Assembly: GCF_000025685.1 (NCBI RefSeq) | Contig: NC_013967.1 | Coordinates: 210,001 to 242,000, forward strand | Length of the DNA stretch: 32,000 bases | Direction: 5' to 3' | From: Haloferax volcanii DS2 | GTDB lineage: Archaea; Halobacteriota; Halobacteria; Halobacteriales; Haloferacaceae | In this document: positions 21,332 to 32,000 of the stretch, in pieces | Layout: each line of letters starts with the position of its first letter | How positions within the stretch are numbered: the first letter of the stretch is position 1 | Program-made: the position numbers and the translations under genes | The notes under the pieces: model-generated | Told to the model about the DNA's origin: nothing | Databases searched by the model: none | The model's input: the letters and a program-made list of their open reading frames with translations, nothing else

Positions 21332-21537
21332 CTCAGTCGAGACGTTTCCCGCTCGTTGCAAAAGTCTTCCCGCCGCCGTCTCGTGGTTCTCGTTCCTGCG
21401 GCCCTCTCCCGAACACGACATGCGGCACTCACGTATCAGGTCAGAGTCAAAATGGGACCGCCCGGGCTGTCCTTACCTATCAGTAGCCGACTCTCCACTA
21501 CCTCTATCGGTCGAACTGAGATATTCCTACTCATGAC

Positions 21538-22569
21538 TCATTCAATCCGGAGTTTGTCCAGGTGAGGACGGCGGCGCAGCTCCATCCGTTCGCGCTGGGA
21601 CGCTTTGTCGTAATGCTGTTCAATAACCTCTTGAGACGCATTCACGCGCTCCGCGGTCACCTCCGCAGGGAACCCGCGATCTCTGTGCCACGTAATCGAC
21701 CCCGTTCGAATGTGGTGTGGTGATCGAGAAGACGGACACTTGCTACCCTGAGTGTATGACCCCGCGAACTCGCAGGAATCTTTCTCGTACTCGTGCGGGC
21801 ACGGACCAGCAACACACGGCTGCGTCGCCTGATACATCCACCCCCGAAAGCCGTTCTTCGAGATACGAGTTCCGTGGTGCGTCACGAACAGCGGAGAGCG
21901 ACCAAAGTCGTCGTGGCCATCCGGCCGGAACTTCTCGATGTAGGTGTTCAGCGACTCGACGACCTCCGGCAAGAGCGAAACCGTACGTTCGCCATTCATC
22001 TGATTCTTCAGCGGCGTCTCGGACTCCGGCCGGTGGACGAACTCGACGTACTGCTCATCGGGGTAGTAGTCGCGCAGATCGAGCCCGCGAAGGGCACCGA
22101 GACGAGCGCCCGTGTGCCACGCGAGTTCGAGAACCGCGTGGAACCGAGTCCCGCGGACGCTACTGTGTGACCGGTAGTACCGAAGCAATCGAAGCGCGTC
22201 GTCGGGAACCAACATCGTGTCTCGCGACCGCTCCGACATCGGGACACTCGGTACGTGGACCTTCTTCGAGAGACCGTCCTCGACCGCCTCGATGCGCTCG
22301 AGGTACTCGATGAACCCGAGCAGCGTCTCCATCTCGCCGTGGAGAGTGGGTGAGGCGATACCCTGACCAGCGCGAAAGGCCTCGAACTGCTCGAACGTCC
22401 ATCCGTTCAGGTCAGAGACGCGCTCGATATTCTGGTCCTCGCACCATTCGACCCAGAGTTTCAGACGGTATCTGTAGGTCTTGATGCTCGACTCCGAGAG
22501 TTCCGTCCCTCGACGGTCAAGATAGCGGCGAACGGCCTCGCGGGGCTTGAGTTCTGAGGGTCCGTTCAT
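21538..22569 (-). CDS. Tyrosine recombinase / phage-type integrase
   Basis: 343 aa. It has an N-terminal SAM-like core-binding domain. Catalytic residues are in order: R (HTGARLGALRGL), HxxR (SPHHIRTGS) and Y (IEQHY). A Cys-rich insert (CVAGPCPHEYEKDSCEFAGSYTQGSKC) is also present. Confidence 0.9.
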   Translation of the reverse strand: MNGPSELKPREAVRRYLDRRGTELSESSIKTYRYRLKLWVEWCEDQNIERVSDLNGWTFEQFEAFRAGQGIASPTLHGEMETLLGFIEYLERIEAVEDGLSKKVHVPSVPMSERSRDTMLVPDDALRLLRYYRSHSSVRGTRFHAVLELAWHTGARLGALRGLDLRDYYPDEQYVEFVHRPESETPLKNQMNGERTVSLLPEVVESLNTYIEKFRPDGHDDFGRSPLFVTHHGTRISKNGFRGWMYQATQPCVAGPCPHEYEKDSCEFAGSYTQGSKCPSSRSPHHIRTGSITWHRDRGFPAEVTAERVNASQEVIEQHYDKASQRERMELRRRPHLDKLRIE

Positions 22570-25109: not shown

Positions 25110-26276
25110 TTACCGGTGGAACCGGTCGTCTGGTGGTCGGTTCGCGGGGACGGCCCGACGCACCGCGAGGGCCGTCCACGCTGCTCGACGGACCATATTG
25201 ATGAACTCCTTGAACGACCACTCCCAGAGGCGACGCCCCCCACGGCGGGGCGTCGCCACGTACTCCCAGTGCAAATACCGCCAGACGTTCTGTAACAGCA
25301 GGCTCACCACGACGTACAACAGCCGTACGACCGGATTTTGTGTCGAGGTCGTCGCGATACTTTGCTCGGAGAGTCGATAGCTTGCCTCGATACCGAAGCG
25401 TTTCGCGTAGTGGTATCGAGCGTCCCGTGGTGAGTCGATGAACGGCGCGTCAGCGGCGTAGCCGTGACGCGCCACGCCATGTTCGTCGTACCGTCCGTTC
25501 TGGTAGGTACAGTCGATGTAGACGGGAAACTCGACGGTCCAGCTGTGACCGTCGAGTTTCGCTGTCAGACTGTGCTGAATCACGCGACTCCACCCTTCTG
25601 AGAGTTCTCGCTTGATCGTCTGTCCCCAGCGGACGATCGGCATGACGTAGGCGTGGTTGTGCGCCTGAAGCAGCGTCAAACACTTGCTGTCGTAGAATTC
25701 GCGGTCAAGATAGACGGCCTTGACACCGAGGTCAAGGCCGTCGAGAATACCGAGGAACTCTGCGAGGACACTGCTGGCGGTGTCGCCGTCTTCGAGACGG
25801 CGCACCGCCAGCGTGTAGCGTTTGTTCTTCACGCGTGCGTACAGTGTCGCGTACGCGTGAAACGCGGTGGTTCCACGCTTCGCTTGTGAGTGATACAGGC
25901 CGTCTGTATCGTCTTCGTCGCCGTAGTAGGGCCGCAGGTGGAGGTCTGCGCAGACCTCCACCTGCTGGGGAAGGACGTTGAGAATGTCCTTCTGGAGGAG
26001 CGTGTTCCCGATTTGTTCGAGCGTCTCGAGGTCGAACTTGGTGCGGAGATGGTAGAGAACCGAGTTTTCGTGAGGTGCATCTTCGCTTCTCTTGCAGAGT
26101 GTAGAGACCGAGGTCCCGTCGGCGCAGGCGCCGACGAGGACCTCGTAGATGTCTTCAGCATCGAGTTCAGCGTTTTCAGCGAGTGAGAGAGCAACTTCCT
26201 CGTCAAGAGAGTTGACGAGGAAGTTAAGGAGCTGGTCCTCGTGGATTTCATCGTCTGTTTGCTGGTTGTTGGACAC
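25110..26276 (-). CDS. ISH3-family DDE transposase
   Basis: ...HEDQLLNFLVNSLDEEVALSLAENAELDAEDIYEVLVGACADGTSVSTLC...VYLDREFYD...YAKRFGIEASYRLSEQ contains the Y-x2-R-x3-E region. There is no ATG start. GTG at 26276 (MSNNQQ...) is preferred over TTG at 26300, which would lie only 8 nt inside the IR. Confidence 0.85.
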   Translation of the reverse strand: MSNNQQTDDEIHEDQLLNFLVNSLDEEVALSLAENAELDAEDIYEVLVGACADGTSVSTLCKRSEDAPHENSVLYHLRTKFDLETLEQIGNTLLQKDILNVLPQQVEVCADLHLRPYYGDEDDTDGLYHSQAKRGTTAFHAYATLYARVKNKRYTLAVRRLEDGDTASSVLAEFLGILDGLDLGVKAVYLDREFYDSKCLTLLQAHNHAYVMPIVRWGQTIKRELSEGWSRVIQHSLTAKLDGHSWTVEFPVYIDCTYQNGRYDEHGVARHGYAADAPFIDSPRDARYHYAKRFGIEASYRLSEQSIATTSTQNPVVRLLYVVVSLLLQNVWRYLHWEYVATPRRGGRRLWEWSFKEFINMVRRAAWTALAVRRAVPANRPPDDRFHR

Positions 26277-26307
26277 ATCTTCAGCAAGCAGACGTCTCAA
26301 CTAACCG

Positions 26308-27480: not shown

Positions 27481-27741
27481 ATGGCTAGTGCGACCCGTGA
27501 TGATAACGGCGAGGAGGGCGTCGAGTTCATCCACGAGGATGACGGCAGTATCACCGCCCGAGACATCGAGACGGGGATCGCATCCTTCGGCGAGACGAAG
27601 TCTGAGGCGCTTCGGATGCTCTCGGAGGCGCTTCTGCTGCACGAAGGGGGTGGCGAACCCGTCACGGACGAAGATCTCGAGGAGTTGGGACTCGATACTG
27701 ACGAGTTCGACGATCGAGAGCTTCCGGACTTCATGCAGTAA
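27481..27741 (+). CDS. hicB: HicB-family antitoxin
   Basis: IHEDDGSITARDIETGIASFGETKSEALRMLSEALLLH matches the HicB/UPF0150 N-terminal fold pattern. The tail is acidic, and the gene lies directly upstream of a HicA-like ORF. Confidence 0.75.
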   Translation: MASATRDDNGEEGVEFIHEDDGSITARDIETGIASFGETKSEALRMLSEALLLHEGGGEPVTDEDLEELGLDTDEFDDRELPDFMQ

Positions 27742-27742
27742 C

Positions 27743-27988
27743 GTGGCGCGAACGACCTTCTCCGGCCGGGAAGTCGTGAAGGCGTTAACCCGTCATGACT
27801 TCGAACCCGCTGGCCGAACCGGGAGCCACGTTCAGCTGCGGTACGAACATCCAGAGACTGACGAAGTCCGAACGGTAACCGTACCGATGAAGTCAGACAT
27901 CCCGACCGGAACGCTTCAGTCCATCGCCAAGCAGTCCGGCGCGAAGGATTTCCACTCGTGGTGCGAGTGGATCGAACAGACGCTGTAA
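27743..27988 (+). CDS. hicA: HicA-family mRNA interferase toxin
   Basis: The GTG at 27743 lies 1 nt after the hicB stop. ...GREVVKALTRHDFEPAGRTGSHVQLRY...TVPMKSDIPTGTLQSIAKQSG is the HicA/YcfA signature (GSH...VP.H/K...GTL..I.KQ.G). Confidence 0.75.
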   Translation: MARTTFSGREVVKALTRHDFEPAGRTGSHVQLRYEHPETDEVRTVTVPMKSDIPTGTLQSIAKQSGAKDFHSWCEWIEQTL

Positions 27989-28198: not shown

Positions 28199-28328
28199 CG
28201 CTACCGCGGTCGGCCACCCGCCTGTACTTAATCCTTCGGACGGGGTGAGAATCTCAATAGGACCACGCACCAAATCCTCCGGAATTCCTGAATGTTATTG
28301 CACAACGGGTAGCCGCCGTCTTCGTATC

Positions 28329-28736
28329 ATGTCCGTAATGGAGTTCGACCCGGAGGACGCCGCGGCGCTCGTCGCGACGTTCATCGGGACGACGGCAATG
28401 GCAGGAATCGCATCGTGGTCGCTGTTCGACGTGACGCTCTCAGACGTGGCGTTCCAACTCGCGGGCAACGACGTGACGCTGGCGACGCTCCTCACGTTGG
28501 GCGCGCTCGGCGTCACCATCCTCACGAACGACAACGCCGAGTTATCCACCCTGCACCAGCAGGCGAAGGACCTCGACAACTACTACTACTACAGCATCGT
28601 CGCCTCGGTCGGCCTGTTGGTCGGCTGGGTCTTCTTCGGTGACGTGAGTTCGTTCGTGCAGTCGCAGGACCTCTGGGGCGTCGGCTACGTCGCTGTGAGT
28701 CTCACCGCGCAGATGGCGATCGGGTGGATGCTATGA
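28329..28736 (+). CDS. Membrane protein (135 aa, about 4 TM), first gene of the envelope-protein operon
   Basis: ATG at 28329. Predicted helices: AALVATFIGTTAMAGIASW, LATLLTLGALGVTIL, YYSIVASVGLLVGWVFF and GVGYVAVSLTAQMAIGW. A TATA-like gttatt lies at 28294-28299. Confidence 0.6.
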   Translation: MSVMEFDPEDAAALVATFIGTTAMAGIASWSLFDVTLSDVAFQLAGNDVTLATLLTLGALGVTILTNDNAELSTLHQQAKDLDNYYYYSIVASVGLLVGWVFFGDVSSFVQSQDLWGVGYVAVSLTAQMAIGWML

Positions 28737-28948
28737 ACCTCGATCTCGACGACCTCGATCTCGAAACGGTTGCAATCATCGGTGCGGGCGTCGGTTCGCT
28801 CGATGCCGGACTGTCGGCCGCGACTGACATCACGCTCCTGTCTGATCTCCTCGGTGGAAGCCTCGAAACCGGACTTATCGCTGTCGGCGCGGCTGGTGGT
28901 GTCGTGATCGCGGACAAGCTCGGACTCGTTGAGGTGTTCGAGTCGTGA
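28733..28948 (+). CDS. Small Gly/Ala-rich protein (71 aa)
   Basis: ATGA overlap with the upstream gene (28733-28736). Sequence: MNLDLDDLDLETVAIIGAGVGSLDAGL...GLIAVGAAGGVVIADKL. Confidence 0.45.
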   Translation: MNLDLDDLDLETVAIIGAGVGSLDAGLSAATDITLLSDLLGGSLETGLIAVGAAGGVVIADKLGLVEVFES

Positions 28949-29475
28949 GGCGCGGCCGCGCAACCCTCGCGCTCGTCGGTCTTTTGGTCGCAGCTGTTGC
29001 CGCAGTCGCCTTCGTCGGTCTCGGTGCGGCGACCGTGACGACCGACTCGGCCAACTTCACGAGCGTCGGCAACGACTCGCTCGCGAACCAGACCATCGAC
29101 GTGACGAACGACACGCGGAGTCTCTACGTTGAGTTGGACAACGACACCGCGACTGCCTCCGAACCCGTCGAAGTCGCGGTCTTCGAAGTCGATGCTGACG
29201 GTAACGAGACCGAAGTCGACCGCGTGCAGATCTCTGCAGCGGACGGGACAACCGAACTCTACGAGTTCGATGCCCTCGACCCGACGAACGTCTCGACCTA
29301 CCGCGTCGAAGTGCTCGGGACTGCGTCGGCGATTGACTCGTCTGCCCTCGACGTGGGGACGGTCGCGGCAGTCTCGTCCGGTGGTGGCTTCCTCGGCGGC
29401 TCGTCCGGTGGTATCGGAATCGGTGCGATTGCAGTCGTCGGAATCGGCGGCTATCTCGCGCTCAAGGAGGACTGA
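28945..29475 (+). CDS. Secreted, C-terminally anchored glycoprotein candidate (176 aa)
   Basis: GTGA overlap with the upstream gene. It has an N-terminal signal/anchor (MRRGRATLALVGLLVAAVAAVAFVG). I counted 7 N-x-S/T sequons (NFT, NDS, NQT, NDT, NDT, NET, NVS). A Gly-rich stretch, GGSSGGIGIG, precedes the C-terminal TM. Confidence 0.65.
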   Translation: MRRGRATLALVGLLVAAVAAVAFVGLGAATVTTDSANFTSVGNDSLANQTIDVTNDTRSLYVELDNDTATASEPVEVAVFEVDADGNETEVDRVQISAADGTTELYEFDALDPTNVSTYRVEVLGTASAIDSSALDVGTVAAVSSGGGFLGGSSGGIGIGAIAVVGIGGYLALKED

Positions 29476-29481
29476 CCCCTG

Positions 29482-31095
29482 ATGCTCCGACTTGCATCGA
29501 CCTACGCCGCCGTTGGTCTCTCGGTGGCCGCCGCCTACCTCGCCGGGGTCCACGGCGACCACCATGCCGCCGCCATCGTCGCCGCGGTCGCTGTCCTCTT
29601 CGTCGCGCTTCGACTCTCGTTCGGTGATGTGCTTCGGCTCGGCGCGCTCGATGCCGACCGGGTCAAGGTCAAGGCTCGACAACTCGGCACGCTCGCCGCC
29701 GTCAGCCTCGTCGTGACAACCGTGGCCACGAGTGGCGTTGTTCCTGGTGCGTCGCCGGTTGGTGACGCTTCTGCGGAGTGGGTCGACTGCTCGCTGTCCG
29801 ACCCGCTACTCGGCGCGGCGTTCAACACCTTGACCGGCACAGACACCGGCTGTCGCTGGGAGTCCGGCGAGCAAATCGACTATGAGAACGTCTCGAAGAC
29901 TGACGCGTACGCCTCCGCCCTCGGGATTGCTGACGCCTCCGAATCGTACACGACGACGACGAGTAACTTCCTCGAAGACACGCGGTCGGTCGCGTGGTCG
30001 AAGGCGAAAATCACCATCGTTAACGAGCTCAACAACGGCTCGACGGTCAGTCAGGCGAAAGTCGCGGCCAATCAGACAGTCGCGGAGTACTACACCGGCG
30101 TCCAGCGGAACGTGATTGCTGATTGGAACGCGAAGACGTACACACTCGGGTACCTCCACACGGAAAGCGGACTTGCCCTCACTCCAGACGGTTTCTCGCA
30201 CATCACAGAGTGGGACAACAAGACGTACACGCTTTCGGATGGGTCGACGCAGACCCTGCGAGCGATGGACTACTCAACGAATGGAGACTACCACGTGGCC
30301 CCTGAGACGACTATCATGCCACGCTCGACGGCCGACCCCGGTATCACGACTATGGGGTCCATCCAAGCCGAAGACCCGTCGGACGGATCTACGACTCACG
30401 TTCTTAGTGCGGTGGCCTACGCCGAGATTCTCGACAACACCTACAATCAGTCAAATCAGATTCAGGCGAACGTCGACGAGTACGCTGATGATGCGTACGC
30501 GCAGTACCAAGCGGGCGACATCAACACGAGCGACCTGCTCGACCCGACAACGATTGCCTCGCAAGCGGCGACTGATTACAACTCGACGGGGTACTACTCG
30601 TTTGCCGCTGTGCAACTCGCGTCGCTCGGTGCGTCGGGCGACCTCAACGCCTCGCACACTATCGAGACGGGCGACGGTACGACGCTCAACGGGACGCTCT
30701 ACTACACAGGCGACGACGCGCCTGCCGGTGGTTGGGTGACTAATGAGACGTACACCGTTTCGAACTTTAGCGGGACGTTCTACGTGGCCGCCCAACAGCA
30801 GGACGGAAACGGGAGTATCGTCGACCTCTCGACCTACGAGAATTTCACAATCGTCGACGCGGTCAACACCCGGACAGGTGAGTCGCTGAACGCGACGCAA
30901 CCCGAGACGTACATCTACGACTCGACGAACGCAAGCGCCCTCGCGGACGAAATTGATCGGCTTCGTGATCTTCGCGCAGAGTACGAGCAGGCCGGCGGTT
31001 CCGGTGGCGGCGGTGGAATCGGAATCGGAACTGAGGACCGCCTTATCATCGCCGGTGCGATCGTTGCGCTCATCCTCGTCGCTACCCGGAACTGA
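29482..31095 (+). CDS. Large membrane-anchored surface glycoprotein (537 aa), candidate spike/fusogen-like protein
   Basis: The ATG is preceded by the SD-like AAGGAGGA at 29464-29471. Hydrophobic N-terminal segments are followed by a ~430-aa ectodomain with about 15 N-x-S/T sequons and only two Cys (CSLSD...GCRW). It ends in GGSGGGGGIGIG plus a C-terminal TM (LIIAGAIVALILVATRN). An alternative in-frame GTG at 29629 would give a classical signal peptide. Confidence 0.7.
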   Translation: MLRLASTYAAVGLSVAAAYLAGVHGDHHAAAIVAAVAVLFVALRLSFGDVLRLGALDADRVKVKARQLGTLAAVSLVVTTVATSGVVPGASPVGDASAEWVDCSLSDPLLGAAFNTLTGTDTGCRWESGEQIDYENVSKTDAYASALGIADASESYTTTTSNFLEDTRSVAWSKAKITIVNELNNGSTVSQAKVAANQTVAEYYTGVQRNVIADWNAKTYTLGYLHTESGLALTPDGFSHITEWDNKTYTLSDGSTQTLRAMDYSTNGDYHVAPETTIMPRSTADPGITTMGSIQAEDPSDGSTTHVLSAVAYAEILDNTYNQSNQIQANVDEYADDAYAQYQAGDINTSDLLDPTTIASQAATDYNSTGYYSFAAVQLASLGASGDLNASHTIETGDGTTLNGTLYYTGDDAPAGGWVTNETYTVSNFSGTFYVAAQQQDGNGSIVDLSTYENFTIVDAVNTRTGESLNATQPETYIYDSTNASALADEIDRLRDLRAEYEQAGGSGGGGGIGIGTEDRLIIAGAIVALILVATRN

Positions 31096-31128: not shown

Positions 31129-31704
31129 ATGCGCAGAACCATCATCACGCTCGTGATCCTCATCGCAGTCGTATCGCCCGCGCTCGTCGGCACGGTCGCC
31201 GCGCAAGAATCGACGAACTCCACGACGACCACCGCGCCGTCGACCACGCCCGAAGCAACTCAGACTATCGAACTCTCTCCGACGACGCGAATCAAATCGT
31301 GGTCGTTCTCGAATGGGACGTTCTCGCTCGTCGTCGAGGCTGACATCCCGACACGGATCGCCATCACCGACGCTGGTGAACTCTCTCGGATTCTTTCCGA
31401 GGGAGACGGTGCAGCTGCCGGGAAAGCCCGCGTCCGGCGCATGACCTTGACCCCCGGAACGACCGTCGTCAAGTTCCGCGCCGAATCGGTCGGTGACGCG
31501 TCGGCAATCACCGTCTCCTCGTCGAACGCAGACGGTATCGTTGCTATCCGCTCCGACGCGATCAAGACTGGAAACCCGCCCGTCGAGTACGGAACGGTCC
31601 AGACGCTTCTCGCGTCGACGGCGGTCGCCGCGGCCGGTGGGACCTTCCTGTGGGTTCGCAAGAAGCGCAACGAGAAGCAGCTGGAGGTTGAGCGGGAATG
31701 GTGA
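31129..31704 (+). CDS. Secreted, C-terminally anchored protein (191 aa)
   Basis: Sec-type signal (MRRTIITLVILIAVVSPALVGTVAAQE), a Thr-rich linker ([17 protein letters not shown]), and a C-terminal TM followed by a basic stop-transfer (LLASTAVAAAGGTFLWVRKKRNEK). Confidence 0.65.
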   Translation: MRRTIITLVILIAVVSPALVGTVAAQESTNSTTTTAPSTTPEATQTIELSPTTRIKSWSFSNGTFSLVVEADIPTRIAITDAGELSRILSEGDGAAAGKARVRRMTLTPGTTVVKFRAESVGDASAITVSSSNADGIVAIRSDAIKTGNPPVEYGTVQTLLASTAVAAAGGTFLWVRKKRNEKQLEVEREW

Positions 31705-32000
31705 ACGACTGGGTGAAGCTCGGCGCTGTGGGCGCTGTTTTCGCCTACTTCGGCGGGTACCAATTCCCCGAGTGGGCACCACTCGCCGCGTCCGGTCTCG
31801 TCATCGCTGGAATCGGTGCGCTGTTCGCGACGGGGAAGATCAACGATCTCCTCCCCGACCCACCGCGGGTGCGTCTCGTGCAGGTGAACGCGAACAGCGA
31901 CGACCCGCTGGCGTGCTGGTCTCTGTCTCCGGACAAGTTCGCAGAGATGCAGGTCGAGTGGGGCCCGCTGTATCCACACGAGCAGGCTCACGGCGATGTG
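31698..32000 (+). CDS. Membrane protein, N-terminal fragment (continues beyond the window)
   Basis: ATG at 31698 overlaps the upstream stop (ATGGTGA). Manual translation gives MVNDWVKLGAVGAVFAYFGGYQFPEWAPLAASGLVIAGIGALFATGKINDLLPDPPRVRLVQVN... with two TM helices. The frame stays open to the window end. Confidence 0.55.
   Translation, partial: MVNDWVKLGAVGAVFAYFGGYQFPEWAPLAASGLVIAGIGALFATGKINDLLPDPPRVRLVQVNANSDDPLACWSLSPDKFAEMQVEWGPLYPHEQAHGDV

Follow-up and report, generated by a model that had tools for sequence, protein, structure and literature searches.

The 32,000-nucleotide (nt) window analysed here (positions 210,001 to 242,000 of the forward strand of NC_013967.1, Haloferax volcanii DS2) contains an open reading frame (ORF) at 29482..31095 on the forward strand that starts with ATG and encodes 537 amino acid (aa) residues. 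This ORF is, with high confidence, HVO_0271, the gene for the VP4-type envelope spike of Halfvol1, a betapleolipovirus provirus at tRNA-Pro(TGG). An initial annotation, made from the sequence alone, had proposed a spike or fusion glycoprotein of the pleolipovirus type, which is now backed by sequence comparison, the predicted fold, the tRNA-integrated provirus context and the published annotation of HVO_0271. The gene and its assignment are already in print, and so not new: HVO_0271 has been named a VP4 spike homologue with 50% identity to VP4 in HGPV-1 (Halogeometricum pleomorphic virus 1) (PMC7911831, PMC12091111). The main value of the analysis is that a lead is closed, in that the inference from raw sequence was right and the alternative of a fusexin can be dropped. 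A long conserved leader of the spike is a previously unremarked detail and, counted with it in passing, the extra gene HVO_0270 makes up the residual novelty.

Sequence and predicted fold of the spike

A tblastn search of deposited virus genomes with the spike matched pleolipovirus spike genes only. These comprised the HGPV-1 VP4 precursor (50% identity over residues 90-502, E-value 2e-98), the spikes of Haloferax volcanii pleomorphic virus 1 (HFPV-1; 44%, 8e-88) and Halfgib1 (40%, 5e-72) and His2 VP1 (28%, 3e-25), together with weaker matches to spikes of the HHPV and HRPV viruses and to proteins that Archaeoglobus pleomorphic viruses carry under the name "VP4-like membrane fusion proteins". 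Searching PDB sequences with phmmer matched the HRPV-2/HRPV-6 VP5 chains 6qgi, 6j7v and 6qgl at 5e-13 to 5e-08. The family PF26255 (Viral_env_HRPV) is assigned to all 39 of 39 spike homologues from a large protein collection, these being precomputed assignments, including that of the identical sequence P0001; a local Pfam scan gave noise only, the library used being without the PF26255 model.

The ORF divides into two parts, the leader being delimited by alignment to the mature-peptide (mat_peptide) record of HGPV-1, homologue conservation, the ratio of non-synonymous to synonymous substitution (dN/dS) and model confidence (predicted local distance difference test, pLDDT), and the mature spike being assigned by tblastn, phmmer and Foldseek:

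29482..29775, forward: spike precursor leader, 98 aa; a hairpin of two helices (residues ~2-47), then a basic loop, a helix of signal type (~59-86) and, ahead of the predicted cleavage, the motif ...SPVGDASA
29776..31095, forward: predicted mature VP4-type spike (HVO_0271); a loop between Cys103 and Cys124, a helical N domain into which a beta-subdomain is inserted, a C domain, a linker rich in Gly, a transmembrane anchor (~nt 31030-31086) and, last, the stop codon

The topology is type I, with the signal-type helix and an ASA/E motif at the N-terminus and a transmembrane anchor at the C-terminus, where the hydropathy scan finds a hydrophobic segment at residues ~517-535, as had been claimed for the 537-aa ORF. 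The other compositional claims of the initial annotation, a very high N-x-S/T density and only two, closely spaced Cys residues, hold as well: 15 sequons were counted, every one in the ectodomain, against 5.6 ± 2.1 in composition-matched shuffles (0 of 5000 attained 15), and exactly two Cys, at residues 103 and 124, flank CSLSDPLLGAAFNTLTGTDTGC. Among the homologues C124 is invariant and C103 is kept in at least 90%. The ectodomain is acidic (57 D+E, 15 K+R).

The spike was modelled with AlphaFold2 from 38 homologues (mean pLDDT 71), and most of residues 131-350 and 390-470 reached pLDDT values of 72-94. Helices 131-184, 189-229 and 310-343 surround strands 240-309, and the C-terminal half is helical and beta, which fits the two-domain V-shaped fold, in which a helical N1 domain carries a beta N2 insert and is joined by a C domain. 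Foldseek against PDB returned four significant matches, all to HRPV-2/HRPV-6 VP5 (6qgi, 6j7v and 6qgl; E-values 7.8e-12 to 1.8e-06, probability 1.0), the next match being at 0.07, and among predicted viral structures HRPV-11 VP4 was the sole significant match (7.7e-19). The structure prediction and Foldseek comparison that had been proposed as a check thus lead to the pleolipovirus VP5/VP4 fold, the significant matches being to the VP5 structures and HRPV-11 VP4 only.

The same searches bear on a class II fusogen of the HAP2/fusexin type carried on the integrated element, which the initial annotation had raised alongside the pleolipovirus spike. What speaks for it is the general setting only, namely a glycoprotein with a membrane anchor that is encoded on a mobile element of haloarchaea, and fusexins are found on such elements too (PMC9259645). 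Against it, the Pfam scan of the spike found no HAP2 family match at E<=1, class II, HAP2 and Fsx1 structures are absent among the 50 best fold matches listed, the N-terminal half of the AlphaFold model is built of helices of 34-54 residues, not of beta-domains, and the spike has only two Cys. With no such match from the family search at E<=1 or among the 50 fold matches listed, this identity is rejected, and its probability is practically nil.

The Halfvol1 provirus and the mobility of its spike

On its left the element is bounded by ATGGGACCGCCCGG, which repeats the last 14 nt of tRNA-Pro(TGG) at its 3' end. Outside the window, at C1:252026-252098, lies the intact tRNA-Pro(TGG) gene, whose 3' end forms the second copy of the repeat, copy and gene together spanning C1:252025-252098; a tRNA scan of the window found none, the tRNA-Pro gene lying beyond its end. 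The 14-mer is present three times in the genome. The repeats bound a 20,573-bp element, with boundaries found here at C1:231452-252038, and Halfvol1 has been described as a 20,573-bp betapleolipovirus provirus (CP001956 nt 231453-252025) with 14-nt tRNA-Pro-derived repeats (PMC7911831, PMC12091111). Size and boundaries agree, and therefore the element is Halfvol1 and the gene is HVO_0271. The other features of the element are listed below; the PHROG E-values may include self-matches (the length of phrog_13810 equals that of HVO_0270) and were not taken as independent evidence.

21452..21465, forward: attL, exact repeat, 14-nt copy of the tRNA-Pro(TGG) 3' end
21538..22569, reverse: provirus tyrosine integrase (Pfam Phage_integrase 6e-06, 26.5 bits, just short of the 27.1 cut-off; phrog_1 integrase 1e-26)
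25110..26300: 396-aa insertion sequence (IS) transposase in the low-GC cargo region of the provirus
28329..28736, forward: HVO_0268, VP3-family internal membrane protein (phrog_3232 4e-42)
28733..28948, forward: HVO_0269, small 71-aa membrane protein, homologue of HGPV-1 VP3 and HFPV-1 gp3 (80% identity to HFPV-1 gp3; phrog_7558 2e-37)
28945..29475, forward: HVO_0270, extra 176-aa gene product resembling a type I membrane glycoprotein, placed after the small membrane protein and before the spike
31129..31704, forward: HVO_0272, ORF5-like conserved pleolipovirus protein (phrog_1938 3e-48)
31698..32000, forward, continuing to window-equivalent 32492: start of HVO_0273, ORF6-like conserved protein (phrog_7373 8e-149, full 264 aa)
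after HVO_0273: VP8-like AAA ATPase (phrog_1979 9e-122, AAA_25)
L005 5864-7228 and 7319-8683 (window-equivalent 33864-36683): tandem 454-aa DDE_Tnp_1 ORFs, 1455 nt apart
L005 10186-11184: IS110-family transposase gene

Farther on lie an ORF9-like gene and a betapleolipovirus DUF7845/ORF14-like regulator (DUF7845 8e-110, phrog_3288 2e-186), and the element thus shows an integrase, tRNA-derived att repeats, a DUF7845 regulator and a length of 20,573 bp, as an integrated betapleolipovirus does. The spike gene occupies its conserved core position, with the VP3-like gene 5' and the ORF5/6-like genes and VP8-like ATPase 3', an order shared with the relatives' loci L006-L009. In L007 and L008 the syntenic 135-aa genes carry PF26064 VP3, and the counterparts of HVO_0272 carry PF26259 DUF8063; the predicted start of HVO_0268, at 28329, rests on these homologues being 135 aa long. 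HVO_0268 is 71% identical to HGPV-1 VP2 (PMC12091111). The provirus contains four IS transposase genes in total, and the structural core genes examined are uninterrupted; the structural and ATPase core of Halfvol1 is intact with open frames.

All four of the relatives' loci examined are pleolipovirus-type clusters, and a spike match occurs in 10 of 21 species-level genomes of the genus, with the best other-species match just 51% identical; homologues chiefly outside mobile elements, which the initial annotation had considered a point against a fusogen, were not found. A comparison with the provirus of Haloferax sp. ATB1 (L008) further locates an exchange within the gene. The DNA is 95% identical from 28306 to 29558 (codon ~26 of the spike), identity is undetectable at 29559-31061 (L008 6078-7640), where the proteins are 31% identical, and the DNA is 92% identical again from 31062 (the last ~11 spike codons) on, so that one breakpoint lies within leader helix 1 and the other within the C-terminal anchor. 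Between proviruses that are otherwise nearly identical, the ectodomain of the spike has thus been exchanged as a cassette. Among short-leader relatives the closest in the ectodomain, P0003 (79%), is on another backbone, with a DUF1424 protein, which agrees with the published view that spikes follow hosts, not virus taxonomy (PMC10599561). Such precise exchange of the ectodomain fits the published idea of host recognition driving spike evolution.

Further copies of the family were noted. One genome of the same genus (G007) has four spike homologues with identical match scores, 48% identical to the query, on three contigs (C1:411913-413250, C1:1345789-1347126, C2:13082-14419 and C3:4606-5943), which points to a pleolipovirus element that is multicopy or is actively replicating. 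The DS2 genome itself carries a second spike of the same family (G000:C1:1302478-1303875, reverse strand), a 541-aa open frame with 31-34% identity, which is HVO_1431 of the provirus Halfvol3 (PMC12091111). Just 5' of the structural operon, at 27481-27988 of the window, the ORFs resemble by eye a HicB-like antitoxin (86 aa) followed by the C-terminal region of a HicA-like toxin.

HVO_0270, which is absent from HGPV-1 and HFPV-1, is laid out as a signal/transmembrane helix, a sequon-rich part, a Gly-rich linker and a C-terminal transmembrane segment. Its AlphaFold model contains a 7-strand beta-sandwich at residues 45-141 (block pLDDT ~70-89), and its fold matches are generic only, jelly-roll or carbohydrate-binding-module-like, at E >= 2e-3. 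Four homologue clusters were found in 5.8 billion proteins, the single named source being a Haloferax, and a tblastn search of 50,697 virus records returned no match. That it duplicates part of the spike was ruled out by comparison; HVO_0270 may be a second envelope glycoprotein.

Start codon and the 98-residue leader

The initial annotation had left the N-terminus of the spike ambiguous between a Shine-Dalgarno-supported ATG at 29482, which adds extra hydrophobic helices before a signal-like segment, and an in-frame GTG at 29629. Both sequences are present, with a GGAGG at 29466-29470, 11 nt 5' of the ATG and inside the end of the preceding gene, and with the GTG as codon 50 of the ORF. Three N-terminal helices are indeed modelled by AlphaFold (residues 2-24, 27-47 and 59-86), and the hydropathy scan gave two hydrophobic stretches (~25-56 and 68-90). 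On comparative evidence the ambiguity is settled toward the ATG at 29482, which is probably the true translation start. When the leaders of the 38 aligned homologues are measured up to the conserved cleavage motif, their lengths show a bimodal distribution:

28-41 aa: conventional leader, one hydrophobic segment, 20 of 38 homologues
92-114 aa: long leader, two to three hydrophobic segments, 14 of 38 homologues or about 37%, the query spike included

The remaining four rows are one mature-peptide record, two sequences nearly without a leader and one with a 77-aa leader that is apparently truncated.

Translation from the GTG would give an ordinary 49-aa signal peptide, with the upstream 49 codons as an untranslated spacer. 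Its 488-aa product would be sized like the spikes of HGPV-1 (VP4, 486 aa) and HFPV-1 (493 aa), leaders of 28-41 aa are found in the 20 homologues above, and the Shine-Dalgarno support for the ATG was counted as weak, such support being weak start evidence in haloarchaea. Against this start stands the conservation of the extension in the 14 long-leader homologues, where the motif M-x-R-L-A-x-T-Y...A-Y...R-L-S is found again in proteins just 31-47% identical overall. In four such homologues identity over the hairpin (residues 1-49) is 43-49% and over the ectodomain 39-50%, the hairpin value being equal to or above that of the ectodomain. The leader also evolves as coding sequence, with a dN/dS of 0.42 against L007 and, against L009, a proportion of synonymous differences (pS) of 0.82, at which synonymous sites are saturated, and of non-synonymous differences (pN) of 0.41. 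The ATG sits one to two codons past an in-frame stop in the window, L007 and L008, and upstream of the spike genes of HGPV-1, HFPV-1 and L006 no hidden hydrophobic sequence was found; presence or absence of the extension is therefore a genuine difference between these genes and not a gene-calling artefact. Hairpin residues 1-50 are modelled at pLDDT 73-90. GC content by codon position did not discriminate the coding status of the leader. A GTG start is thus unlikely, and the ATG at 29482 is retained.

Two further ideas about the leader were rejected. In HGPV-1 and HFPV-1 a small gene lies upstream of the spike gene, but the extra helices do not represent it, that gene being a separate ORF here (28733-28948). 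The first 25 residues are nearly identical to those of P0037 and P0039, which reflects a recombination breakpoint instead of strong selection. A tblastn search with the leader against the 50,697 virus records found no match, and thus none in the isolated pleolipoviruses searched.

As for processing, the HGPV-1 mat_peptide boundary ASA/EF aligns with A98/E99 of the spike; the mature HGPV-1 peptide starts right after the aligned ASA, and the mature N-terminus is therefore predicted at E99 (nt 29776). Homology to HGPV-1 indicates that the precursor is probably cleaved by signal peptidase, and cleavage after A98 would yield the mature N-terminal semi-tryptic peptide EWVDCSLSDPLLGAAFNTLTGTDTGCR. 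The basic loop between leader helices 2 and 3 holds several R and K residues and would fit an N-in/C-out third helix, a topology compatible with signal-peptidase cleavage. It is a tentative and rather doubtful idea that the 98-aa leader is more than a targeting signal and persists after cleavage as a small three-pass membrane protein, which might stay with the spike or the virion envelope, or act in the lysogen membrane. The stable signal peptide of the arenavirus glycoprotein and the foamy-virus Env leader would be analogues. The probable start at the upstream ATG and the three-helix leader, of a kind present in about a third of the family, matter for expression constructs and proteomic searches.

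Role of the spike and comparison with known systems

On the pattern of its relatives, HVO_0271 would be made as a precursor that its leader inserts into the cell membrane, where signal peptidase would cut after ...SPVGDASA (A98) and some of the 15 sequons are probably N-glycosylated. The C-terminal helix would keep the mature spike anchored, and the spike would exit on budding membrane-vesicle virions. At a new host, the V-shaped two-domain ectodomain would bind the S-layer, and the viral and cell membranes would then fuse. HRPV-6 was shown to fuse with the host membrane in a manner that depends on its VP5 spike (PMC6381117), and the host S-layer triggers HRPV-6 fusion (PMC8875312); by analogy, receptor binding and fusion are likely activities of HVO_0271. 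A few spectra of HVO_0271 were seen in CsCl-gradient particle fractions of a provirus-carrying strain and none in a provirus-free strain (PMC12091111).

Several points weigh against identifying HVO_0271 as a working pleolipovirus spike. Fusion is an activity demonstrated in relatives only, and with four IS transposase genes Halfvol1 may produce particles inefficiently. The spike model is poor at residues 83-129 and 358-387 and in the C-terminal linker. Its global TM-scores to VP5 are low (0.36-0.39, with the domain-sized 6qgl_B alone at 0.64); low scores are expected when a protein of two domains joined by a hinge is modelled together with its disordered termini, yet they stay a caveat. PHROG scores may be inflated if Halfvol1 itself is in PHROGs. 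Nor does the mature N-terminus show the strong hydrophobicity of the putative fusion peptide in HRPV-2/-6 VP5: across residues 99-140 the maximum 11-residue hydropathy is only 1.1, with pLDDT values of 33-49. The conserved C103...C124 loop with LLGAAF may be the fusion-peptide counterpart.

A different role would make HVO_0271 chiefly a cell-surface glycoprotein of the host or provirus, acting in superinfection exclusion or surface remodelling and not as an entry machine. The protein has been seen by mass spectrometry in cell-surface fractions (ArcPP dataset PXD011015; PMC7911831), a 40- to 150-fold drop in HVO_0268-0271 transcripts on HFPV-1 infection (PMC9436352) shows that these genes are expressed in the absence of induction, Halfvol1 contains several IS elements, and provirus deletion alters host phenotypes (PMC12091111). 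What tells against such a role is that circular Halfvol1 DNA was obtained from virus stock (PMC7911831), that the structural and ATPase core is complete with open frames, and that the ectodomain cassette swap is the expected product of selection on host recognition. Taken as the chief role it appears distinctly improbable; a surface role in the lysogen and an entry role are compatible with each other.

The spike resembles HGPV-1 VP4, of a betapleolipovirus, in the ASA/E cleavage motif, the two Cys residues, the Gly-rich linker, the ...TRN anchor at the C-terminus and the position in the gene cluster. Unlike the query leader of 98 aa with three helices, that of HGPV-1 has 38 aa and one helix, and in HGPV-1 no gene resembling HVO_0270 separates the small-protein gene from that of the spike. 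HFPV-1 infects the same host species, and its spike is 44% and its small neighbour protein 80% identical to those of Halfvol1, but it has a short leader and neither an HVO_0270 homologue nor an integrase. HVO_1431, the 541-aa Halfvol3 spike in the same genome, belongs to the same family, but is 31-34% identical in two matched stretches only and is placed on an alphapleolipovirus-type backbone. VP5 of HRPV-2 and HRPV-6 shares the type I topology, the Gly-rich linker and the C-terminal transmembrane helix at ~20% identity to the query spike; its mature form begins with a putative fusion peptide, a hydrophobic stretch of ~20 residues, whereas the query has at that region a mildly hydrophobic, poorly modelled loop between two conserved Cys residues.

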